A stretch of 64,000 nt of DNA from a virus, in IMG/VR virus record IMGVR_UViG_3300023296_001674; one strand, written 5' to 3'. Shown here piece after piece: positions 6,537-58,351 of this stretch (position 1 is the first letter of the stretch; each line of letters begins with the position of its first letter). The notes under the pieces are model-generated. The model made no database searches, was not told the origin of the DNA, and saw only the letters and a program-made list of their open reading frames with translations. A program made the position numbers and the translations under genes.

Positions 6537-7271
6537 ATGGTAAAACGCAAAACAACAGAACAGTTTATACAAGAATCGACTGCAATTCATGGTGATGTAT
6601 ATGATTATTCATTGACCAATTATATCAATAGACGTACCAAAGTAAAAATAATATGCACCGTTCATGGTATATATGAACAAACTGCGGGAAATCATTTATA
6701 TCAAAAACAAGGTTGCTCAAAATGTGCCGGTGATAAACAGGCATCGAGACAGCGAAAATCACTATCACAGTTTATTCAAGAGGCAACAATAGTTCACGAT
6801 TCTTTATATGATTATTCGTTGGTGGATTACAATCATACTGATATAAAAGTAAAAATAATATGCCCAACGCATGATATATTTAAGCAAACGCCGCATGATC
6901 ATTTACATGGAAAAGGTTGCCCTAAATGCGTTCATACTATATCAAAAGGTGAAACTAACTGGCTTAATCGCATTGGTTTACCAGACGATACACAACATAG
7001 ACAAGTGCGCTTGCCTATGAATAATAATAAAAATCGAAGGGTTGATGGTTATGATCCATTAACCAATACTGTTTATGAATTTCATGGTGATTACTGGCAT
7101 GGCAACCCCGCACGTTTTAATCTCGATGATATAAACCCAACCATTAAAAAACCATACAGACAACTCTATGAAGCCACCTTAACCAAGGAAGTGCTTATCA
7201 AAGATTCCGGTTATAATCTTGTAGTTATGTGGGAGCATGATTGGAAAGCTCATCCCTCCCTAACAGTATAA
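6537..7271 (+). CDS. Homing endonuclease, two Zn-ribbon repeats plus Vsr/PD-(D/E)XK-like nuclease domain
   Basis: MVKRKTTEQFIQESTAIHGDVYDYSL...KVKIICTVHG...CSKC repeated twice, then DGYDPLTNTVYEFHGDYWHGNP. Paralog of 11698-12435. Starts 26 nt after the helicase stop with no promoter of its own. Confidence 0.8.
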   Translation: MVKRKTTEQFIQESTAIHGDVYDYSLTNYINRRTKVKIICTVHGIYEQTAGNHLYQKQGCSKCAGDKQASRQRKSLSQFIQEATIVHDSLYDYSLVDYNHTDIKVKIICPTHDIFKQTPHDHLHGKGCPKCVHTISKGETNWLNRIGLPDDTQHRQVRLPMNNNKNRRVDGYDPLTNTVYEFHGDYWHGNPARFNLDDINPTIKKPYRQLYEATLTKEVLIKDSGYNLVVMWEHDWKAHPSLTV

Positions 7272-7296
7272 TATTAAATTACTCGTAAAAAAGCAA
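7250..7296 (-). promoter_or_regulatory. AGGGAGGGATGA-class promoter, copy B (overlaps the 3' end of the homing endonuclease ORF)
   Basis: Minus strand: TTGCTT (7296-7291), 17 nt, TATTAT (7273-7268), 6 nt, 12-mer at 7261-7250. Confidence 0.45.
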
Positions 7297-7404
7297 TGAT
7301 TATTTTTATAATATGACGTAAATTACTTGTTGACATTGGTTCAGTTAGTTTGTAATATCTTTTTATCAGAACATCATACATTCACAAATGAAAGATTGAA
7401 AATA

Positions 7405-7824
7405 ATGCCAACATATCGAAAAAGAATACTCATATCAGAATTCGCTGAACCAGAAATATTTTTTGAATATAAAGGTGTGAAAATATATCATACTTATACA
7501 GACAATGCTGAAACACTTTCATCATTGAATTTTGACCGTGATTGTAAAAGCAAGCGGTTGTTTACCACGAACAAAAAATGCGGCATGGTTCCCATGTTTG
7601 ATGTTTATTTTGAAAACGATCTTCGTGTATGGGACAAACAATCAAAAAATGAAACCCGTGGGGTGTTTAACATTCAAAACATTCCAAATCCTAAAGGGCA
7701 TCATATTACGACTCATGCTGGTATTTCAAGAGTTCTTATGGAAGCAATTGACACCGGTTGGATTAAAACTAATAAAACACCAGAGTGTATTCACGATTGT
7801 CATATACTCGCACATCCAAAATAA
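7405..7824 (+). CDS. Hypothetical protein
   Basis: Track ORF trimmed to ATG 7405, downstream of promoter TTGACA 7330-7335 / TAATAT 7353-7358. Confidence 0.65.
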   Translation: MPTYRKRILISEFAEPEIFFEYKGVKIYHTYTDNAETLSSLNFDRDCKSKRLFTTNKKCGMVPMFDVYFENDLRVWDKQSKNETRGVFNIQNIPNPKGHHITTHAGISRVLMEAIDTGWIKTNKTPECIHDCHILAHPK

Positions 7825-7913
7825 TCACATCAAGGGGAGAAGTAAAACCTTTTCCCCTTGACTAACTTTAATAAGTGTGCTATGAATATATCATAATTGA
7901 AAAGGATACGAAA

Positions 7914-8138
7914 ATGCATAACGCAGATGTTCTACATAATGCCTTACTTACCGCAACGATGATGATGCGTAAAGGTCGTGCGTTTAAGATTGTTAGATAT
8001 TCACCCAAACAAGAAACGGTTTATTATAGACCATTTTTCGCCAACGACCTGACTGACATACGCACTGACGAGTTGGATCACTTGTGCGACGATGATTCGA
8101 TTCAGTTATTCACCACAACGCAACTCGAAACACAATAA
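7914..8138 (+). CDS. Hypothetical protein
   Basis: Track ORF trimmed to ATG 7914 after AAAGGA. Promoter TTGACT 7857-7862. Confidence 0.65.
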   Translation: MHNADVLHNALLTATMMMRKGRAFKIVRYSPKQETVYYRPFFANDLTDIRTDELDHLCDDDSIQLFTTTQLETQ

Positions 8139-8147
8139 GGAAAACCG

Positions 8148-8345
8148 ATGCAAACTTATACCACCCCACGCTTAACGAACATAAGTGATACATTTCGCGC
8201 CGACGTTGCTGCGGGTGAATTAACTACATGGTGTGAAGAAAACAGTGTAGGTGCTTGGTTCATCCACGCCGTTGATCATGTGGAGTTTGAATTCCCCACA
8301 GATGCCAAACAATTTATGATGAAGTTTTGGGAGCTAGACTCCTAA
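8148..8345 (+). CDS. Hypothetical protein
   Basis: ORF track; RBS AAGGAAAA; followed by a terminator. Confidence 0.7.
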   Translation: MQTYTTPRLTNISDTFRADVAAGELTTWCEENSVGAWFIHAVDHVEFEFPTDAKQFMMKFWELDS

Positions 8346-8439
8346 AAATCCCCCCGCATGTTCCTACGCAAGTAATGAAGACACTCCATGCGGGGGTTCT
8401 TTTTGTTTTGGCGCACCCAAAAAAAGCTCATCCCTCCCT
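8344..8439 (-). ncRNA. Predicted ~96-nt RNA from copy C, ending at the shared terminator. Carries micro-ORF MSFFWVRQNKKNPRMECLHYLRRNMRGDF.
   Basis: Predicted +1 at A 8439. Hairpin 8396-8350 followed by a U-run on the minus strand. Confidence 0.35.
8350..8405. terminator. Bidirectional rho-independent terminator
   Basis: ccccccgcatg (8350-8360) pairs with catgcggggg (8388-8396). T-run after, A-run before. Confidence 0.75.
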
Positions 8440-8473
8440 ATCAGCATAATAGCAGGGTCAATAGATAAGTCAA
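8428..8473 (-). promoter_or_regulatory. AGGGAGGGATGA-class promoter, copy C
   Basis: Minus strand: TTGACT (8473-8468), 16 nt, TATTAT (8451-8446), 6 nt, 12-mer 8439-8428. Confidence 0.6.
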
Positions 8474-8550
8474 CCATTATTATTAAAAATAAACCATTGA
8501 CAACGGCTTTTGTATTTTATATAATATATAGATTGAAAAGGAGAATTGAA

Positions 8551-8958
8551 ATGTCGCGCACTTATCGTAAGCTTCCTTATTGGTCAAATGATCCAAAATT
8601 AACACGTGAGCGAGGCTCCAAATGGACTGGCATGCGTGTTTTTGTTGCTCCTAATGGAAATGTATTCGGTTGGGATGATGAAGCCCTACGTAAAAAATCA
8701 TCTAAACGTCGCACCAATCGCATTCGCCGTTTGATGGGCAAGAAAGAAATTGTTCTTGCCGTTGCTGCTATGGCAGAAGACGCAATGGAAGACCTCAACG
8801 AAATGATGGATTGGGAAGCCGAAGAGTATTGCGATACATATTACGACGAGTATGAATTGTCTGAATGGGCTGATTGGAAACAGCGTGAAATTGATGATCA
8901 AGCAATTGAAGAATATTATTTAAATGAAGACCCATATTATTACGATTTTGATTATTAA
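8551..8958 (+). CDS. Hypothetical protein with basic N-terminus and acidic C-terminus
   Basis: Track ORF trimmed to ATG 8551 after AAAGGAG. Promoter TTGACA ~8499 / TATAAT. Confidence 0.65.
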   Translation: MSRTYRKLPYWSNDPKLTRERGSKWTGMRVFVAPNGNVFGWDDEALRKKSSKRRTNRIRRLMGKKEIVLAVAAMAEDAMEDLNEMMDWEAEEYCDTYYDEYELSEWADWKQREIDDQAIEEYYLNEDPYYYDFDY

Positions 8959-9000
8959 GGGTTGACATCACTATTTGATTTCGTTATGATTCATCCAAGC

Positions 9001-9034
9001 TAACAACACAACATAAATCTTGAAAGGATTTAAC
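9001..9034 (+). repeat. 34-bp identical 5'-UTR repeat, copy 1
   Basis: taacaacacaacataaatcttgaaaggatttaac, identical to 9308-9341. Immediately precedes the ATG of 9036. Confidence 0.85.
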
Positions 9035-9035
9035 T

Positions 9036-9293
9036 ATGGCTAATAAATTCACAATCACACGCACTTATGATCGCGATGAAATTATTGACACAGTTAATAA
9101 ATCCATTGAACAAAACGGAACATATCATCAAATCAAATCGTTGCTTGATACTTTATATACTGGATGGTTTTTTGATATAGAAACGGCTTGCGAAGTTGAA
9201 TTGATTTTACGCGAAAAGGGCGATTTTATTCGCGAGTTTTATCAAGAACGGCTAGACGAAATGAATGCTGCCAAGAAATTTGACTTGGTATAA
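9036..9293 (+). CDS. Hypothetical protein
   Basis: ORF track. Promoter TTGACA 8962-8967 / TATGAT 8985-8990. Confidence 0.7.
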   Translation: MANKFTITRTYDRDEIIDTVNKSIEQNGTYHQIKSLLDTLYTGWFFDIETACEVELILREKGDFIREFYQERLDEMNAAKKFDLV

Positions 9294-9307
9294 CTATTCA
9301 CTTAAGA

Positions 9308-9341
9308 TAACAACACAACATAAATCTTGAAAGGATTTAAC
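9308..9341 (+). repeat. 34-bp identical 5'-UTR repeat, copy 2
   Basis: Identical to 9001-9034. Promoter TTGACT 9279-9284 / TAAGAT 9302-9307 lies inside the end of the previous gene. Confidence 0.85.
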
Positions 9342-9342
9342 A

Positions 9343-9672
9343 ATGTCTAAAACAATTTCCCGCGTAGACTTCATTGAACTTATGGCAGATGCTGCAATGC
9401 GACTTCCAGTAACACGCAAGCGCAAGCCAGAGGATGACCCATCTGAATTCATCGACTTGTTTGATTATGATGCAATGTCAAACGAATGGTCGAAAGGTGT
9501 TCAGTGGCTTCGTGGCGTTGGTGATAGTGGCACTTATAAAGTTCCGACACCCGATGGAACATTCAAGCGCGTTCCAATGCGAACTATTGCTGAAATGCCA
9601 GCGTTCATTCAAGAGATTGTTACCGAGGCACAAACTCATTTGAATATCGATTCGATTGTCGAGATCGCTTAA
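9343..9672 (+). CDS. Hypothetical protein
   Basis: ORF track. Confidence 0.7.
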   Translation: MSKTISRVDFIELMADAAMRLPVTRKRKPEDDPSEFIDLFDYDAMSNEWSKGVQWLRGVGDSGTYKVPTPDGTFKRVPMRTIAEMPAFIQEIVTEAQTHLNIDSIVEIA

Positions 9673-9723
9673 CTAATCTTTAATCATTCGGTGCGATACT
9701 TCTTTATGAAAGGAGTATCGCAC

Positions 9724-9879
9724 ATGATTGATTTTTTATTATACTATTCACTTGGTGGGGTTGTTTGGTGTGTATGGACTGAAGTTCTACACCGGAAAGG
9801 ATTCTTAGCCAGACTAGGGTTGATTGTATTCATCCCTTTTGTTGCAATCACTTTAATGTTGGAATCAATACGAAATTAG
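9724..9879 (+). CDS. Small membrane protein (two predicted TM segments)
   Basis: Track ORF trimmed to ATG 9724. AAAGGAG lies in the loop of hairpin gtgcgatact/agtatcgcac (9691-9723). Confidence 0.55.
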   Translation: MIDFLLYYSLGGVVWCVWTEVLHRKGFLARLGLIVFIPFVAITLMLESIRN

Positions 9880-9951
9880 TTATTGACTCTTTTATTAAAA
9901 AATGGTACACTTAGTTATACACTTATTATTAACATTTGAAAAGGAATTGTA

Positions 9952-10452
9952 ATGAGACGTTCATTAAAATTAGTATTAGCCTCGATGTTGATCGTGGCGC
10001 TATCCGGTTGTGTTACACAAGGGAGTGGCGGCGGCGTTGGCACTAAAGGTTTGCTTGGCGGTCTTCTAGGGGCTGGCGTTGGCGGATATGCCGGTTCAAA
10101 TATCGGCGGTGGTAAAGGCAAACTTGCTGCTACTGCAATCGGCGTTCTTGCTGGTGCATGGCTTGGAAATAACGTTGGAAACACGCTTGACGACGTTGAT
10201 CGGTTGAAATCGCAAAAGGTAACACAACGCGCACTTGAACGAAATCCGCAAGGTTCTCCAGCGGTTTGGTCGAACCCCACCAATCGAACCTCGGGAACCA
10301 CGACACCGACTCGAACGTATAAGTCACGAAATAATGAAGATTGTCGAACATATAAACAATCAATAGTTATCAATGATAAAATTGAAACAAAACATGGAAC
10401 TGCATGTAGAATAAATGGGCTTTGGGTAGAACAACAACCGCCCGGCTCATAA
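9952..10452 (+). CDS. Outer-membrane lipoprotein, glycine-zipper / 17-kDa surface-antigen-like
   Basis: Lipobox LSGC after the signal peptide MRRSLKLVLASMLIVA. GxxxG-rich zipper. C-terminal CRTYKQ...GTACRINGLW module. Confidence 0.8.
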   Translation: MRRSLKLVLASMLIVALSGCVTQGSGGGVGTKGLLGGLLGAGVGGYAGSNIGGGKGKLAATAIGVLAGAWLGNNVGNTLDDVDRLKSQKVTQRALERNPQGSPAVWSNPTNRTSGTTTPTRTYKSRNNEDCRTYKQSIVINDKIETKHGTACRINGLWVEQQPPGS

Positions 10453-30444: not shown

Positions 30445-31029
30445 ATGGCAACCGATAAAAATGGCTTAACACTTTCAAACGCTTCTGATTCTGGTTATAA
30501 ATTTGTAACTACTTTGTTTGAAGGACCGCTGGCTGGAAAGTTCGTCGCCTTCGCGGATGTTAAAACCGCCGAATTGCAACGCCTGAACAAATCTCACGCG
30601 CACGGAATAAACGGTTTCTTTGGATTCAAAAACGTTGTTCCGTTGGGCGTTTTCGATGATGTGCGCGACGCCGCATACGTTGGACAAACATTCCACGCAG
30701 GGAACGCAGATGACCGCGACGACAACCTTGCCGAATTATACGCTGGCAATGAGTCAGTTATCCCTAAATCATTGACCGATTGGGATAATCCCGCCGATGT
30801 TACTTCAATGAAAAAAGCCGCAACCCGCGCAAAAACCCGACGCATGGGTAAAACATTCGATGCAAAAAAAGCCGAGACCGCAATCGATAAGTTTGCCAAC
30901 AATTTCAAATCATACAAAATCGGTAACATGGATGTCCGCGTAATCTTGGAACGCATGAAAGAACTGTTTGATAACGGAACAAGCTTAACCCTTTCCGCCG
31001 AAACCGTTTGCTCCGATTACCAGCGATAA
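30445..31029 (+). CDS. Hypothetical protein, possible AP2-like DNA-binding domain
   Basis: Track ORF trimmed to ATG 30445 after AAGGAA. SGYKFV...GKFVAF...LGVFDDVRDAAYV resembles the AP2/HNH-associated fold, recalled by eye only. Confidence 0.6.
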   Translation: MATDKNGLTLSNASDSGYKFVTTLFEGPLAGKFVAFADVKTAELQRLNKSHAHGINGFFGFKNVVPLGVFDDVRDAAYVGQTFHAGNADDRDDNLAELYAGNESVIPKSLTDWDNPADVTSMKKAATRAKTRRMGKTFDAKKAETAIDKFANNFKSYKIGNMDVRVILERMKELFDNGTSLTLSAETVCSDYQR

Positions 31030-31032
31030 CCC

Positions 31033-31073
31033 TTGACTCTGGTGTAATTGATAAGTATAATTGATTACACCAG
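31033..31073 (+). promoter_or_regulatory. Stem-loop promoter
   Basis: TTGACT 31033-31038, 17 nt, TATAAT 31056-31061. Arms ctggtgtaat 31039-31048 and attacaccag 31064-31073. Confidence 0.7.
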
Positions 31074-31090
31074 AACAAAAGGAATTTAAC

Positions 31091-31363
31091 ATGGATAAAC
31101 GCGATGTGATTGTAATTTGCGTTGGCAGTGCCGCCGATGATATACGCGCACTTAATCACGCAACAAACTCCGCAGTTCTAGTCGTTGAAGATAAACCCGC
31201 AATTCACGAAATGGCATTGATGGATGATATATTTTTAACCGATGAAGCAAAAGATATGTTTGTGCTTGAATTAATCGAAGACGCGTTGCCAAAGAATTTT
31301 CTAAGTGAACCAAAACCCCGAAAGGCTTGGAAAAACGAATTCGAAAATCTAGGTCGTAAATAA
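31091..31363 (+). CDS. Hypothetical protein
   Basis: Track ORF trimmed to ATG 31091 after AAAGGAA. Confidence 0.7.
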   Translation: MDKRDVIVICVGSAADDIRALNHATNSAVLVVEDKPAIHEMALMDDIFLTDEAKDMFVLELIEDALPKNFLSEPKPRKAWKNEFENLGRK

Positions 31364-31386
31364 ATCAAAACCAGAGTCACTTAGGT

Positions 31387-31432
31387 GTTGACTCTGGATT
31401 TCTTTCTGCTATTATACTGTCAGGGAGGGATG
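31387..31432 (+). promoter_or_regulatory. AGGGAGGGATGA-class promoter, copy M
   Basis: TTGACT 31387-31392 (in the right arm of hairpin ccagagtca/tgactctgg, 31371-31396), 16 nt, TATTAT 31409-31414, 6 nt, 12-mer 31421-31432. Confidence 0.6.
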
Positions 31433-31455
31433 ACTTTATTTTATTCCCGCACTTA

Positions 31456-31557
31456 TAATAAAAGCCAGACTCGCGTCTGACCTTTATCCTTTCTTTCTAT
31501 CCGGTTTATGTCCGCCACGTCGGGTCGGAACTATGTATCGCCGAACGCGTCGGCTAG
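31456..31557 (-). ncRNA. Candidate ~100-nt RNA convergent with the copy M transcript
   Basis: Minus promoter TTGACA (31591-31586), 16 nt, TATTAT (31569-31564). Terminator GGUCAGAC-GCGA-GUCUGGCU (31482-31463) plus a U-rich run. Confidence 0.35.
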
Positions 31558-31672
31558 ATTTATATAATACCACAACAACCAAACATGTCAACAAAAAAGA
31601 TTCAATAATAACACTTGACTCCGTTTGGGTTGGGTGTATACTATCCATAGATTGAAACAAAGGATTAATCAA

Positions 31673-32593
31673 ATGGCAAAAGCAACCCGCACCAAAATCG
31701 ATCATGAGCAACAAATCACTAACGCTATTGTCGCCCACGTTGAAGGGTATATCGCCGCCGAGGCTACAGGCGAAGAGATCGCACGTTGGGAAAGCCCCTT
31801 CGGAAAATTCTTCCGTGAAGGCCATTTTTGCGCCGCAACCGATAACCAGTATAAAGGCTGGACTAACAATTTTTTCCTTACACTTATGGCGCACGCAAGC
31901 GGATTCAATTCCGATGCATGGGGAACATTCAAGCAATGGAAAAGCATGGGAACGGATGAAACACCCGTATCTGTTAAGCATGGTCAAAAAGGTTCCGCTT
32001 GGATTGCTTTTCCATATATCAACAAAGATAAAGTAACCGGCGACGACACCGTAACCGGATTCGGATATCGCGCCGTATTCAATGCCGATCAAATCGAAGG
32101 ATATACGCCCGAGGTTGTTGAACTACCAGAGTCGCAGGTTGTGCAACATGCCAAAGCTGAAACATTCTTGAAAAATCTGGACGTAACATTCCAGCATATC
32201 GGAAACCGCGCTTTCTATAGCCCTGCTAGTGATGCAATCAGCATGCCCCCAGAAGGCGCGTTTAAGGCGACTGAATACAGTACCGCAACCGAAGGCTACT
32301 ATGGCACCAAGTTTCATGAATACGCCCACGCAACCCTGCACGCTAGCCGGTGCAATCGCGAACAAGGCGCGGATAAAGCTTCATACGCTTTCGAAGAGTT
32401 GGTCGCCGAATTGACCTCGACTATCCTATGTTCGCGCTTTGGTATATCCGCACAACCACGCGAAGACCACGCTAAGTATATACATTCATGGTTGAAAGCA
32501 CTGAAAAGCGACAAGACCATGATTATGAAGGCAATGAAGAAAGCAAGCCAAGCAATCGCTTGGATGGATAAAAAGCAACCAACATCAAAATAA
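31673..32593 (+). CDS. ardC: ArdC-like protein: N-terminal ssDNA-binding (DUF1738-like) domain plus C-terminal zincin metalloprotease
   Basis: Trimmed to ATG 31673. YKGWTNNFFL...WGTFKQW, HEYAHATLH (HExxH), YAFEELVAELTSTILCSRFGI, AKYIHSWLKALKSD. Promoter TTGACT 31615-31620 / TATACT 31637-31642. Confidence 0.8.
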   Translation: MAKATRTKIDHEQQITNAIVAHVEGYIAAEATGEEIARWESPFGKFFREGHFCAATDNQYKGWTNNFFLTLMAHASGFNSDAWGTFKQWKSMGTDETPVSVKHGQKGSAWIAFPYINKDKVTGDDTVTGFGYRAVFNADQIEGYTPEVVELPESQVVQHAKAETFLKNLDVTFQHIGNRAFYSPASDAISMPPEGAFKATEYSTATEGYYGTKFHEYAHATLHASRCNREQGADKASYAFEELVAELTSTILCSRFGISAQPREDHAKYIHSWLKALKSDKTMIMKAMKKASQAIAWMDKKQPTSK

Positions 32594-32597
32594 AAGG

Positions 32598-32636
32598 TTG
32601 ACAGTAAGGATATGATATCGTATTATATCCTTACTG
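32598..32636 (+). promoter_or_regulatory. Stem-loop promoter (12-bp perfect arms)
   Basis: TTGACA 32598-32603, 17 nt, TATTAT 32621-32626. Arms cagtaaggatat 32602-32613 and atatccttactg 32625-32636. Confidence 0.7.
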
Positions 32637-32654
32637 AAACGAAAGGAACACACA

Positions 32655-32756
32655 ATGACACACGGTAACGGCAAGATCAGGCGATTCGCAGGCAATCTAG
32701 GGGCGCTAATGCTGGCAGCGCTGGCAGGCTACGCGACGCTGGTGGTCCTAGCATAA
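32655..32756 (+). CDS. Small membrane peptide (33 aa)
   Basis: Not in the ORF track. AAAGGAA RBS. MTHGNGKIRRFAGNLGALMLAALAGYATLVVLA. Confidence 0.5.
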   Translation: MTHGNGKIRRFAGNLGALMLAALAGYATLVVLA

Positions 32757-32959
32757 CGCCAGAACCGAGTCAAGCACTTATTTCACGGTGTTGCACTTAT
32801 GACACAGTCAAGTCTTTTATTATAAAATAAAAATAAAAAAAGACTTGACATTCGAAAAAAAGAGTGCTCGTGCAGTGTTTTGAAGTTTTTTATTTAATGG
32901 ATACCTTACCCTTAGCTCGAAATACGCCAAAATTTTTCAGGCTAAATCGGAACTCTGGC

Positions 32960-33053
32960 TATCGTGACACTTATCGTGACAAAATGTCGCGATACCATTA
33001 TAATGGGTCATTTATTCATCCTATCGTGACATTTGACCCATTATAATGGGTCA
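32960..33053. repeat. Iteron/palindrome block in the 380-bp noncoding boundary region
   Basis: TATCGTGACA at 32960, 32972 and 33022. Inverted TATCGCGACA at 32985-32994. CCATTATAATGGGTCA at 32995-33010 and 33038-33053. 18-bp perfect palindrome gacccattataatgggtc at 33035-33052. Confidence 0.85.
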
Positions 33054-33164
33054 ATACACCCCCCACCCCCTTTTCTATGAAACACTTATTCATTCAATAT
33101 AAAAAAAATTCTGCGCCAAAATTTTAATAAATAATATTAGGTTTTTAACATAGGAACATTTAAC

Positions 33165-33320
33165 ATGAAAACATTATCCGATAAACAACATGCTACCATT
33201 AAAGAGAACATGCGTGCTATTCCAAAAGCATCATATACAGACATTGATCGCACCGCAGTTCTTAAAGAAGAATATGCTGAATTTATAAAAAATATCAACG
33301 AAAGCGACAAACCAGAATAA
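33165..33320 (+). CDS. Small hypothetical protein (51 aa)
   Basis: Not in the ORF track. TAATAAATA motif 40 nt upstream. MKTLSDKQHATIKENMRAIPKASYTDIDR... Preferred over the antisense track ORF 33137-33379. Confidence 0.55.
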   Translation: MKTLSDKQHATIKENMRAIPKASYTDIDRTAVLKEEYAEFIKNINESDKPE

Positions 33321-33323
33321 ACA

Positions 33324-33755
33324 ATGAGAGCATCCGACTTCATCGCTGAAACACTTATATCTGTTTCGCACGGAACCAATACCGATTTTGATCAATTAGA
33401 TGTGGCAAAAACATCCGATGGTGGAATTCACTTTGGTTCCAATCAACAAGCAGCGTTACGATCAACTGGAAAAAATTCGCGCATCATCGATACACAAATT
33501 GATGTTAGAAAACCAAAACGTTGCAAAGACGATGGATCAGGATGGAAAAACAAAATAAAATCCGCCAAACGTTCTGGATATGACAGTATTGTATATTTGA
33601 ACCGTTATGAAAATATGACCACTGAACGAGTAGAACAGTTATCACAATCCGGCAAACTAGATACTTTGGATTCATTATCCGATGCCGCATTCAAAAAATT
33701 AGTTCCTGAAGCACAAGACAGTTATATTGTGTTCGACAACGATCAAATAAAATAG
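33324..33755 (+). CDS. Hypothetical protein; weak resemblance to ADP-ribosyltransferase-like domains of polyvalent proteins (speculative)
   Basis: ORF track. SHGTNTDFD...GIHFGSNQQAALR...YLNRYEN gives an H / S-Y / E spacing. First 15 nt are identical to the next gene. Confidence 0.6.
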   Translation: MRASDFIAETLISVSHGTNTDFDQLDVAKTSDGGIHFGSNQQAALRSTGKNSRIIDTQIDVRKPKRCKDDGSGWKNKIKSAKRSGYDSIVYLNRYENMTTERVEQLSQSGKLDTLDSLSDAAFKKLVPEAQDSYIVFDNDQIK

Positions 33756-33765
33756 GACACTTATC

Positions 33766-34152
33766 ATGAGAGCATCCGAAATCACAGAAACAACAACGTC
33801 TTTAAAATGGGCAACCCGCAACCCATCACCAAAAGATTATGAAATAGTTATGATCGACATTAAAGCACTTATGGATAATACCAATCGCATACAAAAAATT
33901 TCATTATCTGCTGTAACCAAAGCAGACGATGAAAACATTATAGGTGATCGCGTTTCAAGAGCAAAACAATTTTGGCTAGATGGTGGCGAAATGCGACTAT
34001 CAATGGTTGGATACAGTGATTATTCCAAGATGGTAGACTTCACCGACGGTAGACACCGCCTAATAGCCGCGTATCAACTTGGTGAACGCCATGCACCCGT
34101 ATTGGCAGACAAGGACGGCATAGAAGAATTTAAAGCGCTGGTAGGGGCTTAA
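33766..34152 (+). CDS. ParB-like nuclease-domain protein
   Basis: FTDGRHRLIAAYQLGE (DGxHR ParB/Srx motif). Confidence 0.65.
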   Translation: MRASEITETTTSLKWATRNPSPKDYEIVMIDIKALMDNTNRIQKISLSAVTKADDENIIGDRVSRAKQFWLDGGEMRLSMVGYSDYSKMVDFTDGRHRLIAAYQLGERHAPVLADKDGIEEFKALVGA

Positions 34153-34227
34153 AACCCATCACCCCCAAACTATATTGACACCGTAAAACCACAATGATAT
34201 ACTTATTCTTTAATAAAAGGAAATAAT

Positions 34228-34338
34228 ATGATAAAAGGCAATGACGACAATTTCAGTAGCGATACAGGCAATACCATCGAATGGGGTTTGATCGTTATTT
34301 TACTATTAGGATTTCTTATAATTCCCCTGTTCGGGTAA
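34228..34338 (+). CDS. Small membrane peptide (36 aa)
   Basis: Not in the ORF track. Promoter TTGACA-17-TATACT, RBS AAAGGAA. ...EWGLIVILLLGFLIIPLFG. Confidence 0.5.
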   Translation: MIKGNDDNFSSDTGNTIEWGLIVILLLGFLIIPLFG

Positions 34339-34434
34339 TTAATCATTTGTTAGATTATACCAGTAACGACATATTTGGAATACTTATTGTTATTGTGTGT
34401 ATAGTCCTTATTATATTTGGCCCCATATATATTT

Positions 34435-34665
34435 TTATGTAGTACCCACAATATTTACATTATGCTGCGTGCTAGGAAAATTCAATAGATCATATTGTGT
34501 TATATTATGATTAGCAAATGACATATCATGTGGAAATTTTATTGTTGTATACATTATTGATCCATTAATATTTGCTGTTATATCATGATACCGTTCACGC
34601 GATGGTGATTTATCAATGTTTATTACTGTAAACATCAAAATATTGTTAGTATCGCAGCAGTGCAT
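34435..34665 (-). CDS. Hypothetical protein (tandem paralog family, 1 of 3)
   Basis: ORF track. C-terminal ITQYDLLNFPSTQHNVNIV resembles ITQQSLLMYYGTVNNVTI of the neighbouring gene. Confidence 0.55.
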   Translation of the reverse strand: MHCCDTNNILMFTVINIDKSPSRERYHDITANINGSIMYTTIKFPHDMSFANHNITQYDLLNFPSTQHNVNIVGTT

Positions 34666-34699
34666 ATTAACAATACGGCTAATATATCATCATTAAACC

Positions 34700-34924
34700 T
34701 CACGATATAGTTACATTATTAACTGTGCCATAATACATCAATAATGATTGTTGTGTTATGCTATTATCATTGATAAATTCATTTAACGGATAAGCCAACG
34801 CTACTCGCATAGCCCTCATTTTACCGTCAACAAATGCTTTTTCCACAAAGTCATATTTAATTTCATATTTATGATGTAGTTTAGGTTTAGTTTTTGTTTT
34901 CGTAATATCTATTATGTTTATCAT
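34700..34924 (-). CDS. Hypothetical protein (tandem paralog family, 2 of 3)
   Basis: ORF track. Confidence 0.6.
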   Translation of the reverse strand: MINIIDITKTKTKPKLHHKYEIKYDFVEKAFVDGKMRAMRVALAYPLNEFINDNSITQQSLLMYYGTVNNVTIS

Positions 34925-35109
34925 TTTAATTCACTTATTTCCACACGTTTTTTTGTACTGATTATTGACAGTAAATCACGTTGTGATAATGTCATATTAT
35001 GAACAATGGATACTACGCTATATTTCATAGTCACATCCATAATTATACCATCCTTCCAATATACAATATAATGCATACGATTGAAAACAATATCTGTTCC
35101 ATTTCTCAT
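34921..35109 (-). CDS. Hypothetical protein (tandem paralog family, 3 of 3)
   Basis: ORF track; ATGA overlap; LSQRDLLSIISTKKRVEI tail. Confidence 0.6.
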   Translation of the reverse strand: MRNGTDIVFNRMHYIVYWKDGIIMDVTMKYSVVSIVHNMTLSQRDLLSIISTKKRVEISELK

Positions 35110-35299
35110 TTATTGGTTGCCCCCAAACAGTATTGCATTATGGTTACATTATTTTTAGTATCGTATAACGGTAGGAGATCACATTCATAATATCATAATG
35201 CAAAAAGCAAAGAATACGTTGACTACCACCAATGATTCAGTATCCATTATACGACAGCCAATATTATAAAAATCATAAAAATCCAATCATCATCATCCA

Positions 35300-35479
35300 T
35301 TATTCAAATCCTTTTATTACGGTACAAGTCATTTTGTTACCTGGGTATCGTTCAGTATCCCACGATTCTTCTGGTTGGGAGAATGTATATTCACCGTGAT
35401 TAACGCAGTCATCATAAATGGATGACGTTGTCATTGTATAAGTGAGCGAAAATGTAAGTACTGCTACGCAAGCAAGCAA
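35300..35479 (-). CDS. Small membrane/secreted protein, third member of the Cys-x-G-x-F...C family (TTG start or frameshifted)
   Basis: Not in the ORF track. (M)LACVAVLTFSLTYTMTTSSIYDDCVNHGEYTFSQ...MTCTVIKGFE aligns with 35502-35708 and 35705-35899. The nearby ATGATG is out of frame. Confidence 0.35.
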   Translation of the reverse strand: MLACVAVLTFSLTYTMTTSSIYDDCVNHGEYTFSQPEESWDTERYPGNKMTCTVIKGFE

Positions 35480-35501
35480 ACATCATAGTAACTTTGTATC
35501 A

Positions 35502-35708
35502 TTATTCATTTTCAATTACCTTACATCTAATTGTTTTACCGAAATATTGGTGTGATGAGTATGCTGTATCAAATGTTGAGAATTTGTATGTCCCGTTGGT
35601 ATTGCAATGGTTATATATGGTACCAATTGTGCTATAATAAGTGATACTCACCGTGGTAAGTCCTAATATTAATATTATCACACTTATAGCAATTGTATTA
35701 AAGATCAT
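35502..35708 (-). CDS. Small membrane protein (paralog family)
   Basis: ORF track; TM segment then IYNHCNTNGTYKFS...IRCKV. Confidence 0.65.
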   Translation of the reverse strand: MIFNTIAISVIILILGLTTVSITYYSTIGTIYNHCNTNGTYKFSTFDTAYSSHQYFGKTIRCKVIENE

Positions 35709-35899
35709 TTATCGATACTCCTTATTTGGCAATCCATTATTCTATCATCGAAAGGACGTGTGTCAATAGCATTACGTGAAATGAATTCATGATTGCCATA
35801 TGTTGCACAATTTTCAAACACAGCGGTCAATGCGACTGAATAGGAAACATATGATGTAATCAAAATTGTAACGATTGCTGGTAGCACCATATCTCTCAT
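35705..35899 (-). CDS. Small membrane protein (paralog family)
   Basis: ORF track; TM segment then VFENCATYGNHEFIS...MDCQI. Confidence 0.65.
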   Translation of the reverse strand: MRDMVLPAIVTILITSYVSYSVALTAVFENCATYGNHEFISRNAIDTRPFDDRIMDCQIRSIDK

Positions 35900-36468
35900 T
35901 GTTTTTTCTCCTTTTCGAATTGTTTGACTTCATCAAGAAATTTTCTAATATCTTTATTTCCACCACCGAATATACCAAGCTCTATCATTTCTTGTCGTTT
36001 TCTAAGGTAATCAAAATCACAATTACCATCATATAATCCAGAACCGGTTTGCATAGACCAAAACCGATACATCATGGCTCTTGATGTGTAATGTGGTCCA
36101 TGGTGGTATGATTGTTTTTCAACATCCCAACTACAATCATCTATTAGTTTAAATGCTAACTGCACGTATGCGATAGCAGGGTCTGATAGCCAATCTCTTA
36201 CATTGGTATCGAAGTAACCGGGATCACGGTTCCATTCACGGTCAGCCATTTCGGTAGCCCTACGTATTTCTTTTAGGTAGTCGGGTGGTATGGCATATTT
36301 AAGTTGTGTTATCATATCGAGGTATGGTTTAGGGAGCGCTGTTTTACCATTTTGCAATTTGTCATTATTCGACCAAGCTAAGTGATATATGACTACATCA
36401 TCGGTTTTTTGGGCACCATCGATCAAAGTAGGAAAGACGAGATTAATATCTTTGGTATTAAACAGCAT
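35896..36468 (-). CDS. Hypothetical protein
   Basis: Track ORF 35896-36537. Start placed at the internal ATG 36468 to limit overlap with 36458-36643. ATGs at 36486 and 36537 are also possible. Confidence 0.55.
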   Translation of the reverse strand: MLFNTKDINLVFPTLIDGAQKTDDVVIYHLAWSNNDKLQNGKTALPKPYLDMITQLKYAIPPDYLKEIRRATEMADREWNRDPGYFDTNVRDWLSDPAIAYVQLAFKLIDDCSWDVEKQSYHHGPHYTSRAMMYRFWSMQTGSGLYDGNCDFDYLRKRQEMIELGIFGGGNKDIRKFLDEVKQFEKEKKQ

Positions 36469-36643
36469 CTTTGATATCGATATCATTTTCAAAATATTTA
36501 ACTGAGGACATAACGACAACTTGATTATATGATTCACGTTTCATTATTAATTCGTCGCGATTATGGCTGATATAAGTGCCACTTAGGTATGATCTGCTAT
36601 TTGTTTCTCTAAAGTACACTTTTATTTTATCACCGTTTTTCAT
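36458..36643 (-). CDS. Hypothetical protein
   Basis: ORF track. Confidence 0.6.
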   Translation of the reverse strand: MKNGDKIKVYFRETNSRSYLSGTYISHNRDELIMKRESYNQVVVMSSVKYFENDIDIKDAV

Positions 36644-54902: not shown

Positions 54903-55565
54903 ATGAGTTTTAATAATAGACCAGATAGACCTATAGAATCATCCATTTACCTACGATTGGTAACTGAAGGCGAAATGAGAAAAAACACAATAAAATCATT
55001 TTACTCTACTGTTAAAGAAAACGCACCGGAAAATGTATTAAGTCATTACGATGTTCAAGACCCTGATGGAAATCCTGCTACAACGTTGTTATTACATCGC
55101 GTTAATGAAGACAATAAGCATGAATACGAAATACCATTGGTTAGAAACCTTACACCAGATGAAATATACGAAGTAGCATTAAATCTTAACACTAAATTAA
55201 ATGAAGGTGATTTTTTATTAGAATCGAGTTCATTTGACGATGATTGCTGCCTTACGGAAGATGATGATCCATCTGAATATATGGAAGCAGACGTTTTTGA
55301 ACGATTTGCAGAGAAATTATCTGAGCGCATGCATAATGTATGGTATAAAGAACGCGAAGATGCTGGCTGGAGATTTGGTACACAGCGCCTCGAAGAAGAA
55401 AAAACACACCCATTAATGAAACCATGGAATCAATTAACCGAAGAAGATAAACAAATAGACTATTCATTGCCTGAATTTTTTATTGATTTGTTAGAAGAAT
55501 TTGGGTATGCAGTTGTAAGTCATGATGAATTAGATGGATTTTCAGAAGAAATATCTAAAAAATAA
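54903..55565 (+). CDS. RyR (ryanodine-receptor-type) domain protein
   Basis: FAEKLSERMHNVWYKEREDAGWRFGTQRLEEEKTHPLMKPWNQLTEEDKQIDYS matches the RyR domain pattern. Confidence 0.7.
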   Translation: MSFNNRPDRPIESSIYLRLVTEGEMRKNTIKSFYSTVKENAPENVLSHYDVQDPDGNPATTLLLHRVNEDNKHEYEIPLVRNLTPDEIYEVALNLNTKLNEGDFLLESSSFDDDCCLTEDDDPSEYMEADVFERFAEKLSERMHNVWYKEREDAGWRFGTQRLEEEKTHPLMKPWNQLTEEDKQIDYSLPEFFIDLLEEFGYAVVSHDELDGFSEEISKK

Positions 55566-55567
55566 CT

Positions 55568-55596
55568 TTGCATTAAATGTAATATCATGTTATAAT
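55568..55596 (+). promoter_or_regulatory. Sigma70 promoter for the 55.6-61.1 kb operon
   Basis: TTGCAT 55568-55573, 17 nt, TATAAT 55591-55596. Confidence 0.65.
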
Positions 55597-55627
55597 GTTT
55601 GCTTAATAATATTATAAGGATTCCATT

Positions 55628-55882
55628 ATGGTAACTGAAAACTATCCCACTGTCCCATTAGCAAAGTTTGATGGTCGACCAATTGGGAAGGCTGGATATA
55701 AAGAACCGGTATTCAAAAGAAATATATTTCAAAATAGATTTATTGATGTGATTGTCACAGTCTATTCAGGCGAGATACAGCACCCAACATCGGGTCATGT
55801 ATTGGTTCCAGTTATGTTTGGCGAAATGAATGTCATACGATATTTAGATAAAACACAACTGGATTATACTATTGCTAATTGA
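55628..55882 (+). CDS. Hypothetical protein
   Basis: ORF track; RBS AAGGA. Confidence 0.7.
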   Translation: MVTENYPTVPLAKFDGRPIGKAGYKEPVFKRNIFQNRFIDVIVTVYSGEIQHPTSGHVLVPVMFGEMNVIRYLDKTQLDYTIAN

Positions 55883-56657
55883 TCCACTTACCAAATATTC
55901 CAACGACGAACAAGATAAAATAATTGAGGTGGCAAAACGGCATCACGCTCATACGTATCATCGTGGAACTAACTTTGATTTATATAAAGAATATGATGCA
56001 CCATATTGGGGTGACGGCGAATGTGAACACGGGAGTTGTAAACATTGTAAATATAATACCATTGATGAAATACGTTCTAAAATGGTGTATGAAAATCATT
56101 ATGACGACAACGAAGAACGATGTTATGAATATTCAGATGGAGCATTTTATGAATGGTTTAACTCTATTATAACCAATGATGAAAAAATATGGATTGAAAA
56201 TATAGATAAACCATTTGAAAAAGCAATTGTTTTTTATGACAATGAGGAATATTGGGAGAAGATTTACGACGATTATGTCGATTTAACATTGCTGAAATGG
56301 TTAAATGATAAAAATATAACGTATCATATCATAAAAGGATTGCTTGACTTTTCTGTAAATCTGTATTATAAAAAAGAATCCATTTGGGATGATCATATAA
56401 GAGAATATAGACTTAGATTTGGTGACGCGACAACTATCGACTATATGTACGCAATATCACATTTAGGTTGGTATAGAATATCAATATATGATATGGCAAT
56501 AAATGATGATGATATCAATGATGCTATAGAATGGATAGATGAAAATCACACCGGTATTGTTCTTAAATATTCCAACGTTGATGGTTATAGTAGCAATGAT
56601 TATTTGTTTGAAAATGATGAAGATATAATGGGTTTAAAATTAAGATGGATGGAGTAA
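55872..56657 (+). CDS. Hypothetical protein with C-terminal MGLKLRW motif (start uncertain)
   Basis: Track ORF begins at TTG 55872, overlapping the previous gene by 11 nt. The first in-frame ATG is far downstream. Confidence 0.55.
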   Translation: MLIDPLTKYSNDEQDKIIEVAKRHHAHTYHRGTNFDLYKEYDAPYWGDGECEHGSCKHCKYNTIDEIRSKMVYENHYDDNEERCYEYSDGAFYEWFNSIITNDEKIWIENIDKPFEKAIVFYDNEEYWEKIYDDYVDLTLLKWLNDKNITYHIIKGLLDFSVNLYYKKESIWDDHIREYRLRFGDATTIDYMYAISHLGWYRISIYDMAINDDDINDAIEWIDENHTGIVLKYSNVDGYSSNDYLFENDEDIMGLKLRWME

Positions 56658-56661
56658 TAAA

Positions 56662-57513
56662 ATGTATAACACAAGAATAGCGCCATCACCAACGGGTGAT
56701 ATGCACCTTGGTACTGCTAGAACCGCTTATCATAATTTTTTGATGGCAAGGGCGTCCGGTGGAAAATTTATATTGCGCATCGACGATACTGATGCTGCAC
56801 GCAGTAAACAGTCGCACGTCGACGTCATCCTTGAAACTATGGATTGGTTGGGTTTAGACTACGACGAAATCGTTTATCAAAGTGATAGAAATGATCGTTA
56901 TATGGAAGTAATCAAACAGATGGATGCAGATGATCTTGTTTGCGAGTTAGACAATGGTGCATTTGGCACATTCATCGAAAGGGTTCCTGATGAATGGACA
57001 GATGAAATTGCTGGTGATATTATAGTGTCAGAGACCGATAGTGATATTAGTTCTAGTCTTATATTAATGAAAAGTGATGGAACTCCTACTTATCATTTTG
57101 CATCAGTAATAGATGATATGGATTTCAATATTAATTATATTATCAGAGGACACGATCATATATCTAATACACCAAAGCAACTCAATATTATGAACAACCT
57201 TGGTATGGTCATACCTAAGTTCGCACACGTGGGTCTTATTCACAAAGACGGTAAGAAATTATCTAAACGTGACGGCGCAGCAAGTATGTTGCACTATCGC
57301 GATCAAGGATATGACCCTGATGCAATGCTCAATTTTTTATTGAATCTTGGGTGGGCACCAACAAATCAAGGCAAGCAACATAAAATAATAGATCGTGATT
57401 TTGCTCTAGAGATTTTTATCAATGGTGGAAAATTGCGCAATCAATCAGCAAATATGGATTTAGCATTACTAGATTCATACAATAAAAAGTATAAGTATAT
57501 CAAGAGGAAATAA
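56662..57513 (+). CDS. Truncated glutamyl-tRNA-synthetase-like enzyme (catalytic core only; GluQRS-type architecture)
   Basis: RIAPSPTGDMHLGTARTA (HIGH-type), FILRIDDTD, DGTPTYHFASVIDD, IIRGHDHISNTPKQ, KLSKR (KMSKS-type). 283 aa, so no anticodon-binding domain. Confidence 0.85.
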   Translation: MYNTRIAPSPTGDMHLGTARTAYHNFLMARASGGKFILRIDDTDAARSKQSHVDVILETMDWLGLDYDEIVYQSDRNDRYMEVIKQMDADDLVCELDNGAFGTFIERVPDEWTDEIAGDIIVSETDSDISSSLILMKSDGTPTYHFASVIDDMDFNINYIIRGHDHISNTPKQLNIMNNLGMVIPKFAHVGLIHKDGKKLSKRDGAASMLHYRDQGYDPDAMLNFLLNLGWAPTNQGKQHKIIDRDFALEIFINGGKLRNQSANMDLALLDSYNKKYKYIKRK

Positions 57514-57514
57514 A

Positions 57515-58351
57515 ATGAAGTACGATTTAGGTTCAGATTTACACGTAGATATTAATGCGGGTCGCATTGGTATGGTTAGATTTAAAGAAATGAAAAACGC
57601 AGGTAGTGATACTATAGTATTGGCAGGTGATATATCAAATGATCCAGAACTCACTGTTAAAGTATTAGCGATGGCGGCATCGGCATATGAAAATGTAATA
57701 TTTGTGGATGGAAATCACGAACATTATAGTAACGGAAAATATGGGTTAGACGTTTCTGGTGCTATGGGATTCTTCAAAGAAGCAATAGATTTAATACCAA
57801 ATGTCACATATTTATCTGGCGACAATAACGTTATTATTGACGACACGATGTTCGTTGGGGCTAATGCTTGGTATGATTTTAGAATGGCACCACCACAATA
57901 CACGCCTGAAAAATGCAAAGAAGCATGGGAAACAAGCCTAAATGATTTTAGATTATCTAATTTTGACGTAGAGCCAGAAGTATTGGCGGGTATTCAGTCT
58001 GCATTGATTGCGGATCAAGTATCCAAAGCGCAAGATAATGACGATGTTAAAAAAATAGTAGTTGTTACCCACACCGTGCCGAACACTAAAGGATTATTAG
58101 TTAAAAATAATCCATCGTGGGATATATTAAATGGCTGTTTTGGAAATTCAACGATGTCAAACGTATGGCAAGTTGATACAAATCGCAAAATTATTCACGC
58201 AGTTTGTGGACATACACATTATCCAAATGATTTTGTCGACAACGATGGTATAAGATTTGTAATAAATCCAAGAGGTTATCATGGTGCTGAAAACGAACTT
58301 GGTGATAGATGGTTTTTAGTTCAAATGGATACATCAGACGAACGTATATAA
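57515..58351 (+). CDS. Calcineurin-like metallophosphoesterase
   Basis: SDLHVD, LAGDISND, VDGNHEHY, VVTHTVP, CGHTHY. Starts 1 nt after the previous stop. Confidence 0.8.
   Translation: MKYDLGSDLHVDINAGRIGMVRFKEMKNAGSDTIVLAGDISNDPELTVKVLAMAASAYENVIFVDGNHEHYSNGKYGLDVSGAMGFFKEAIDLIPNVTYLSGDNNVIIDDTMFVGANAWYDFRMAPPQYTPEKCKEAWETSLNDFRLSNFDVEPEVLAGIQSALIADQVSKAQDNDDVKKIVVVTHTVPNTKGLLVKNNPSWDILNGCFGNSTMSNVWQVDTNRKIIHAVCGHTHYPNDFVDNDGIRFVINPRGYHGAENELGDRWFLVQMDTSDERI

Follow-up and report, generated by a model that had tools for sequence, protein, structure and literature searches.

In bacteriophage T4, the capsid targeting sequence MKTYQEFIAE undergoes a single cleavage and can by itself direct foreign proteins into the head (PMC8442874). 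Residues 4 and 7 of this peptide serve targeting and residues 8 and 10 serve processing (PMC9026906), with the prohead protease gp21 cutting after L/I-x-E (PMC9026906; PMC5694885). Alt, a T4 ADP-ribosyltransferase (ART), likewise enters the head and has a short propeptide that is removed (PMC9026906; PMC5694885). In phages of the phiKZ/SPN3US type, the paralogues gp53 and gp54 have identical N-termini, which the authors compared with the T4 capsid targeting sequence (PMC5694885). Here, we describe a locus within a 64,000-nucleotide stretch of viral DNA (IMG/VR record IMGVR_UViG_3300023296_001674; referred to below as the window) in which an ART-like gene and a neighbouring, unrelated ParB-like gene begin with closely similar leader peptides. 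We propose, with our confidence evenly divided for and against, that the two enzymes are head-packaged, injected effectors. The shared gene start is the most informative feature of the locus.

A second described system is that of the polyvalent proteins, whose hub modules include ArdC-N, MPTase, HYD-type ART and ParB-like domains and which are described as arising from solo versions of such domains (Iyer et al. 2017, PMC5512222). A preliminary description of the locus had grouped the ART-like and ParB-like genes with an ArdC-like gene as a possible "disaggregated polyvalent protein". Its identification of the three domain types as polyvalent-protein modules agrees with the published list of hubs (PMC5512222), and relatives of the window proteins do show fusions; however, the ArdC-like gene falls outside the set that carries the leader, and the adjacency of the ART and ParB-like genes is not conserved on contigs L001 and L015 or on those bearing close ART homologues. 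Since solo domains have already been described (PMC5512222), the idea of disaggregated modules is sound yet not new.

The ART-like and ParB-like proteins are on record on a 570,750-bp, very large phage-like contig, and independent gene calls on an identical 48.5-kb contig match all three open reading frames (ORFs; Table 1). A megablast search of positions 31000-35000 against cultured phages gave no match and so no close cultured relative.

A leader peptide on unrelated phage proteins

The ART and ParB-like gene starts have ATGAGAGCATCCGA in common, and within the window this sequence is found only at 33324 and 33766, even with two mismatches allowed. The identical start noted in the preliminary description is therefore real and unique in the window, but it extends over 14 nucleotides rather than 15, the last base being different. 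In the predicted structures, the encoded leader, of the common form MRAS[DE](F)I[AT]E, would lie outside both folds: residues 1-6 of the ART model have a predicted local distance difference test (pLDDT) score below 50, with strand 1 starting at residue 11, and residues 1-9 of the ParB-like model are likewise below 50.

Related contigs carry the same peptide in other arrangements. A ParB-like homologue with 71% identity (P0025) starts MRASDFITES, which is the leader of the ART type and not the shorter one of the window ParB-like protein; its 5' end matches the window ART start at 24 of 27 nucleotides, two of the three differences being synonymous. On the contig of this homologue (L001), the ParB-like gene has no ART gene upstream. 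On contig L015, other genes are found at the ART-ParB position, and four adjacent leader genes start MRAHEF, MRATEF, MRASDF and MRASEF (Table 1). The leader of the fourth, the 593-amino acid (aa) gene, is encoded as ATG CGT GCG AGT GAA TTT, as against ATG AGA GCA TCN GAN TTC, and the retention of the peptide despite different Arg, Ala and Ser codons argues for selection on the peptide. Both leader copies in the window use the Ser codon TCC, with TCT, TCA or AGT used in relatives. The shared start had earlier been ascribed to duplication or recombination at the 5' ends of the two genes; the presence of a conserved leader on unrelated genes elsewhere, once in different codons, speaks against this as the main cause, and peptide constraint together with codon preference explains most of the 14-nucleotide identity.

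Most solo members of the ParB-like family bear a similar leader ahead of their invariant Trp, and the leader is kept across homologues of just 25-45% identity. Some members begin directly at the conserved Trp motif and have no leader, as is also the case for the cyanophage S-PRM1 homologue of one leader cargo protein.

A DNA pattern scan of IMG/VR extended the family. The pattern consisted of ACTT, 0-3 bases and then ATGAGAGCANNNGANTT, which fixes M-R-A-x-[ED]-[FL]. It returned 71 loci, at which 52 matched ORFs have at least 90 aa, a length that is rare for chance matches, with starts such as MRANEFITE, MRAREFLPE, MRASEFIKE and MRATEFIIE. Two positions that the pattern left free are nonetheless conserved in the 47 distinct ORFs: 32 of them have I, L or V at position 7, and E is found at position 9 in 29. 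Conservation ends after position 9 in this set; hence the leader unit consists of nine residues, M-R-A-x-E-F-[IL]-x-E, a consensus that the window ART leader matches. At 14 of the loci there are two to four leader genes, adjoining each other in most cases, and on a 61.5-kb IMG/VR contig (L059, 1038-11148, minus strand) seven are consecutive, encoding proteins of 231-1033 aa (more than 3400 aa in total) with leaders of the MR[AFL]x[ED][FI] type, the two largest proteins having no family matches. Several of the carrier contigs are jumbo-sized (259-348 kb). Annotation of the leader cargo in IMG/VR amounts to near nothing: one weak GNAT match, one DUF6321 and PHROGs with no assigned function. No cultured phage with the leader was found, and a literature search for the leader strings gave no relevant paper in the library covered. 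The leader is a real, separable peptide module on many unrelated proteins, and is under peptide-level selection.

At the sequence level, the leader family is similar to the capsid targeting sequence of T4, and the similarity extends to the L/I-x-E protease motif at the end. The T4 genome, which we read as a control, presents the same kind of observation as the window: the adjacent and unrelated genes ipII and ipIII are identical over their first 32 nucleotides, and ipI starts MKTFKEF. In a T4-like phage, the ParB-like homologue P0111 starts MKTFKDFLLTES and adjoins genes for the T4 gp13 and gp14 neck proteins; three more ORFs on the same contig have similar leaders (MRNFKDF, MKSFIEY and MRTFKDF), giving four leader-type genes on this T4-like contig, L025. 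Where PolB adjoins leader genes, it is closest to that of Atu_ph07, Phosso and Rak2-like jumbo phages, which belong to the T4 superfamily.

Upstream of the leader, the context GG(G)AYACTT-ATG was considered as a leader-specific signal and rejected, as it also precedes non-leader genes and is general in this phage group. As a separate observation, ATAAATAC is found no more than 20 nucleotides upstream of the ATG in 31 of 77 leader-type ORFs (L030-L100), typically ending 3-7 nucleotides before the ATG in the cases listed. It resembles the T4 late promoter TATAAATA, and lies at a distance at which transcripts would have little or no 5' leader. The window leader genes have GGACACTT in place of ATAAATAC, and ATAAATA is found at 33127, 38 nucleotides before the small ORF.

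How might the leader act? In the mechanism that we propose, it would dock each protein on the scaffolding core that the prohead presumably has, and a presumed prohead protease would then cut after the leader Glu, that is, after E9 in the ART and E8 in the ParB-like protein. The mature enzymes, of about 15 kDa (ART) and 13.5 kDa (ParB-like), would be retained in the head and delivered into the cell along with the DNA. Once inside, they would serve host takeover or counter-defence, like T4 Alt and IPI*: the ART by modification of a host target, the ParB-like enzyme by action on nucleic acid or nucleotides. On this view, the locus would work in the manner of a polyvalent protein, but with a shared delivery tag in place of the peptide chain as the link between modules. 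In its wider form, which we hold more tentatively and at somewhat less than even confidence, the proposal is that M-R-A-x-E-F-[IL]-x-E marks a large undescribed set of head-packaged, injected effectors in T4-superfamily and jumbo phages, including those with genomes exceeding 500 kb, with the ART and the Osa-like ParB protein as separately tagged cargo, an alternative to polyvalent fusion.

The two enzymes and the surrounding genes

Table 1. Positions of the features of the locus in the window, followed by the four adjacent leader genes of contig L015 (nt, nucleotides)
Feature	Position	Strand	Details
Promoter-like site 5' of the ArdC gene	31615-31642		
ArdC-like gene (ArdC-N and zincin MPTase)	31673..32593	+	306 aa; Pfam, PHROG
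Inverted repeat (16-nt) directly 3' of the ArdC stop codon	32602-32636		
Small ORF	33165..33320	+	51 aa; from the ORF list; also called on the identical contig
Solo ART-PolyVal-type ADP-ribosyltransferase-like gene	33324..33755	+	143 aa
ART leader MRASDFIAE	33324..33350	+	Ends I-A-E9
GGACACTT, translation-initiation context	33755..33762	+	3 nt upstream of the ParB-like start codon; alignment of seven gene starts
Solo ParB/sulfiredoxin-fold, Osa-like gene	33766..34152	+	128 aa
ParB-like leader MRASEITE	33766..33789	+	Ends I-T-E8; one residue shorter than the ART leader (F missing)
L015 MRAHEF gene			Sigma-70 region-4 protein, 145 aa; only one of the four with a Pfam domain
L015 MRATEF gene	9367-9990		207 aa; no family match
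L015 MRASDF gene			241 aa; unassigned domain plus ParB-like domain; only one of the four with a ParB-like domain
L015 MRASEF gene			593 aa; no family match

The ART-like assignment, which the preliminary description had made from a weak resemblance in residue spacing, is borne out by profile and structure searches. The protein matches Pfam ART-PolyVal (PF18760; Tox-ART-HYD2 clade) at 33.6 bits, above the gathering threshold of 31.2, over profile positions 7-131 of 140, and its AlphaFold model, built on the homologue alignment (pLDDT 89.6), has the ADP-ribosyltransferase fold. Matches of the model include the RES, ParT and MbcT toxins and diphtheria toxin, and those to PARP and AcrF11 score equal to or above the toxin matches; a PDB sequence search with the ART family gave nothing useful. 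We found 22 homologues, several of the close ones bearing the same precomputed ART-PolyVal match. The invariant residues are H16 (33369-33371), H36 (33429-33431) and D132-S133 (33717-33722). In the ART family of polyvalent proteins, the active site is made up of a His in strand 1, a Tyr in strand 2 and an Asp in strand 5 (PMC5512222). When positions are mapped from model secondary structure and alignment, as distinct from residue-level superposition, H16 closes strand 1, H36 (in GIHFG) takes the strand-2 place instead of Tyr, and D132-S133 open the last strand. The window ART is thus predicted, from the model, to be a His-His-Asp variant of the HYD-type ART.

Searching cultured phages with the ART protein by tblastn gave one weak match only, to a Dolichospermum phage. 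Distant homologues are found in plasmid or integrative and conjugative element (ICE) contexts, with MobI, TraG, toxin-antitoxin pairs and a group II intron nearby, and have no leader. On contigs with close homologues, no ParB-like gene adjoins the ART gene, and the neighbours differ on both sides. The 51-aa ORF has no significant Pfam or PHROG family match and is missing upstream of ART homologues elsewhere. As its stop codon lies 3 nucleotides ahead of the ART start, it probably opens a unit that it forms with the ART and ParB-like genes.

For the ParB-like gene, the earlier assignment, which pointed to the DGRHR motif, is right at the level of the fold; the protein is not a partition ParB. 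Its model consists of a single N-domain of the ParB/sulfiredoxin (Srx) type with the alpha+beta fold of that group. The fold is closest to that of the plasmid protein Osa, a fertility-inhibition factor with ATPase and DNase activity. The window protein has no Pfam match at E up to 1, including to ParBc, PFIN and DdrB-ParB, and one of 25 homologues matches PFIN (E 0.005). As the domain is Osa-like and matches no Pfam model, it is not assignable to the DdrB-like ParB family of polyvalent proteins (PMC5512222). The family has W15, R62 and the G-R-H-R of DGRHR (34045-34059) as invariant residues; G95-R96-H97-R98, without exception in 25 sequences, aligns with dG.HR of SbnI in a weak profile match (E 0.15), which was the only match, itself weak, in a PDB sequence search with the family. 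A reading as partition ParB was rejected in view of the 128-aa length, the single domain and the lack of a ParA-type or helix-turn-helix Pfam match among the neighbouring gene calls.

An exhaustive phmmer search found 74 ParB-like relatives, many of them solo proteins of about 135 aa and others domains within proteins of 500-1700 aa, a few of which also carry known domains, e.g. Amidoligase_2 and DUF5661. A related-locus search gave six loci with a narrower ParB-like alignment and nothing with the single protein. The domain is fused to an unassigned domain in a 72%-identical relative (P0112, 241 aa) and forms the N-terminus of proteins of 500-860 aa; the fusions include a 664-aa protein of L020, P0032 and P0062. 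The extra domain of P0112 was considered as an ART relative and rejected (hhalign probability 0.04; also no Pfam match). In a high-GC phage (L022, 9095-10339), a 414-aa protein with no Pfam match ends in the domain (ITDGRHRLVAF); it is encoded after presumed terminase and portal genes and before presumed scaffold and capsid genes, as judged by order and size only. This is where MuF-like head proteins usually sit, and we count the placement in favour of packaging of such domains elsewhere. In cultured phages, tblastn with the window protein gave no matches, and the only match of distant family members is a 1093-aa protein of Acinetobacter phage nACB2.

The ArdC-like gene was correctly identified from its single-stranded DNA-binding N-domain and HEYAH zincin motif: the protein matches Pfam ArdcN over residues 13-122 (E 1.6e-10; 41.7 bits against a cut-off of 22.6), Pfam MPTase-PolyVal (E 7e-39) and the PHROG "anti-restriction protein" (E 1e-61), and HEYAH, an HExxH motif, can be read at residues 215-219 (32315-32329). 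Several cultured phages, among them phiCbK-like phages and HTVC011P, have homologues with 31-33% identity that bear the annotation of anti-restriction protein, making this an ordinary gene for a phage. The trio is not one unit. The ArdC-like protein starts MAKATRTK and lacks the shared leader, and its gene has its own promoter-like site, an inverted repeat at its 3' end (Table 1) and about 570 bp of repeat-rich DNA between it and the next genes. On this arrangement, we regard it as a separate transcription unit and only a neighbour of the leader genes; the ArdC-like protein is probably made inside the cell. L015 also has an ArdC gene, which precedes its cluster of leader genes by about 2-4 kb.

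In the intergenic block, TATCGTGACA occurs three times and the 16-nucleotide palindrome-forming unit CCATTATAATGGGTCA twice within 32960-33054, both overlapping a promoter-like GTGACA-17-TATAAT site. These repeats look like candidate operator or iteron sites for the small ORF, ART and ParB-like genes downstream. Between the ArdC gene and the repeats, in a locally GC-rich stretch, a 33-codon ORF (32656-32757, plus strand) encodes the small hydrophobic peptide MTHGNGKIRRFAGNLGALMLAALAGYATLVVLA, with which a promoter-like TTGACA-17-TATTAT at 32598-32626 would belong; its product could be a small membrane peptide or that of a type I toxin-like gene.

Elsewhere, the window encodes a helicase, tail-fibre-like proteins, a ligase, a Dam methylase and homing endonucleases. 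Coding changes strand at about 34 kb (34200-36540, minus), where there is also a fall in GC content from about 0.41 to 0.33. Three adjacent small genes on the minus strand (35300-35479, 35502-35708 and 35705-35899) encode paralogous membrane-anchored peptides with a common Cys pattern; a fourth copy and the adjoining 213-aa gene are syntenic on L001. A RyR-domain protein (54903-55565), a 283-aa protein with the catalytic domain of class I Glu/Gln tRNA synthetases (56662-57513) and two calcineurin-like phosphoesterases are encoded within 54903-58351. On L015, the interval from ArdC to the ParB-like gene (6898-9354) encodes two response-regulator receiver-domain proteins and the leader-tagged protein that is almost solely sigma-70 region 4. 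The 207-aa leader protein of L015 contains IGRGSTSLVYEY, which on reading gives the impression of a kinase glycine-rich loop and has no Pfam match.

Proposed packaging of the effectors, and the alternatives

The possibility of virion packaging, raised in the preliminary description, gains indirect support for the ART and ParB-like proteins and none for the ArdC-like protein. Our confidence in packaging and injection is no higher than even because the protease is presumed and because of several features of the locus and the motif. The 64-kb window holds nothing that places the phage in the T4 superfamily. The mature proteins have isoelectric points of 7.7 (ART) and 6.1 (ParB-like) and are not basic, unlike T4 internal proteins; high basicity is a trait of IPI-III, so the comparison is with these internal proteins and not with the enzyme cargo Alt. 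In huge-phage contigs, the ParB-like gene is found among DNA-metabolism and accessory genes and not among structural ones. The closest ART homologues (MRAHELMVHGT, MRIYEILIHDLVHGT) run from the N-terminus directly into strand 1, which leaves little space for a separable leader. The L/I-x-E motif is short, and in a 15-kb region of T4 a looser one, M[KR]xx[DE][hydrophobic], also picks out 2 of the 21 genes that do not encode internal proteins, a false-positive rate of about 10%. Further points weigh on the same side: there are no head genes among the larger ORFs scanned in the window, the window helicase is nearest to siphovirus helicases, a 27-kb region around PolB in Atu_ph07 is without leader genes, and phiKZ-like giant phages use propeptides of more than 100 residues in place of short ones (PMC5694885).

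The main rival explanation is that the leader is a genuine, selected N-terminal tag with another role (in translation start, in N-terminal stability, as a degradation or chaperone tag, or for another compartment or partner) and that the enzymes act in the producing cell. We consider this unlikely, while granting it a real share of the probability. It accommodates the peptide-level conservation, which is shown, yet no result links the peptide to the head; it also sits well with the non-structural neighbours in huge-phage contigs, with the absence of basic mature proteins, and with an initiation context that is common to many starts in the phage group. Harder to explain by such a tag are the match to T4, which spans targeting-type positions and the terminal I/L-x-E, with conservation ending exactly after the Glu, the occurrence of leaders of the same style beside T4 neck genes, and the arrays of large unrelated leader proteins, which resemble ejection-protein batteries. 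The other explanations fit less well. That the shared start is a functionless by-product of recent recombination or gene conversion in a variable region, the genes being ordinary cytoplasmic anti-defence genes, we judge improbable. The locus is indeed variable, gene content around the ParB-like gene differing between three related contigs, and the TCC codon common to both window copies and absent from relatives fits some local exchange. Against a scar of this kind stand the relative that writes the same peptide with other Arg, Ala and Ser codons, the 47 distinct IMG/VR ORFs with residues conserved at unconstrained positions, and the persistence of the leader among highly diverged ParB-like homologues.

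Quite improbable, in our view, is an explanation in which the ART is the toxin of a toxin-antitoxin or exclusion module, partnered by the 51-aa ORF or the ParB-like gene and serving against competitors or for element maintenance. The close spacing of the 51-aa ORF and the ART gene and the toxin-antitoxin-rich plasmid and ICE regions around distant ART homologues would suit such a module; no partner is conserved, however, as the neighbours of close ART homologues differ and the ParB-like gene occurs without the ART, the PARP and AcrF11 matches are at least as good as those to toxins, and the leader is left unexplained. We give very little credence to the possibility that the ParB-like protein and the upstream repeats form a partition or replication-control system of a plasmid-like lifestyle. 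Its appeal lies in the ParB fold and in the repeats and palindromes at 32960-33054, but a 128-aa protein whose model has a single ParB/Srx-type N-domain, with no ParA-type or helix-turn-helix Pfam match among the surrounding gene calls and with homologues fused to unrelated domains, does not resemble a partition protein.

What would follow from packaging and injection? Because injected phage proteins are at work ahead of all phage gene expression, they are prime candidates for counter-defence and host takeover. Identifying them is difficult unless virion proteomics can be used, and uncultured phages do not allow it. If the leader works like the T4 sequence, it would provide a sequence-only marker for injected proteins in huge and environmental phages, allowing the arsenal of an uncultured phage to be read from its sequence. 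Dozens of unannotated proteins, in arrays of up to seven genes and with up to 1033 aa each, would then be cargo, and module types known from polyvalent proteins would also be deliverable as separately tagged small proteins. A further possible use of the leader would be the packaging of foreign proteins in phages besides T4. If the proposal does not hold, the finding reduces to three correctly identified, ordinary genes of the anti-defence type.

Relation to known systems

The ArdC-like protein has the same architecture, ArdC-N followed by an HExxH metallopeptidase, as ArdC of plasmid pSa and the ArdC-like proteins of phages phiCbK and HTVC011P; nothing here points to its transfer or packaging, and it does not have the leader of its neighbours. 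The ParB-like protein differs from Osa of the IncW plasmid pSa (PDB 4ovb) in being phage-borne and in carrying an N-terminal leader; identity is only 18%, the relation is not detected by sequence searches, and the activity of the window protein is a prediction.

With the polyvalent proteins (PMC5512222), the locus has in common the ArdC-N plus MPTase pair, ART-PolyVal and a ParB-superfamily domain, solo forms of which are described, as well as the predicted role of delivery with DNA and early action in a new host. In the window, however, the modules are separate small genes, and the ART and ParB-like genes encode one domain each, so that the strict definition of a polyvalent protein does not apply; fusions are found only in relatives (P0112 and the 500-860 aa proteins), and the ART has His for the Tyr of the family. 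The head propeptides of phiKZ and SPN3US are likewise N-terminal and are removed after Glu by a gp21-related protease (PMC5694885). They are mostly longer than 100 residues with A/S-x-E sites, whereas the window leader has 8-9 residues and ends in I-x-E, in the style of T4.

The closest likeness is to the T4 internal proteins. In both cases, unrelated proteins, often from adjacent genes, share a short N-terminal peptide (MKTYQEFIAE in T4, MRASDFIAE here) that ends in L/I-x-E, the prohead protease site in T4, and neighbouring genes have their first nucleotides in common (32 in ipII/ipIII, 14 here). T4 cargo includes an ART (Alt) and counter-defence proteins (IPI*), and such loci vary between related phages. 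The differences are that the window leader is one residue shorter and starts MRA and not MKT, that the window ART is of the H-Y-D-type clade while Alt is of the R-S-E clade, and that the putative window cargo is not basic and comes from a phage of 570 kb, for which the window shows no T4 marker. Relative to what is known, we class the system described here as a variant of T4 internal proteins and capsid targeting, with new cargo, a new leader consensus and much larger phages.

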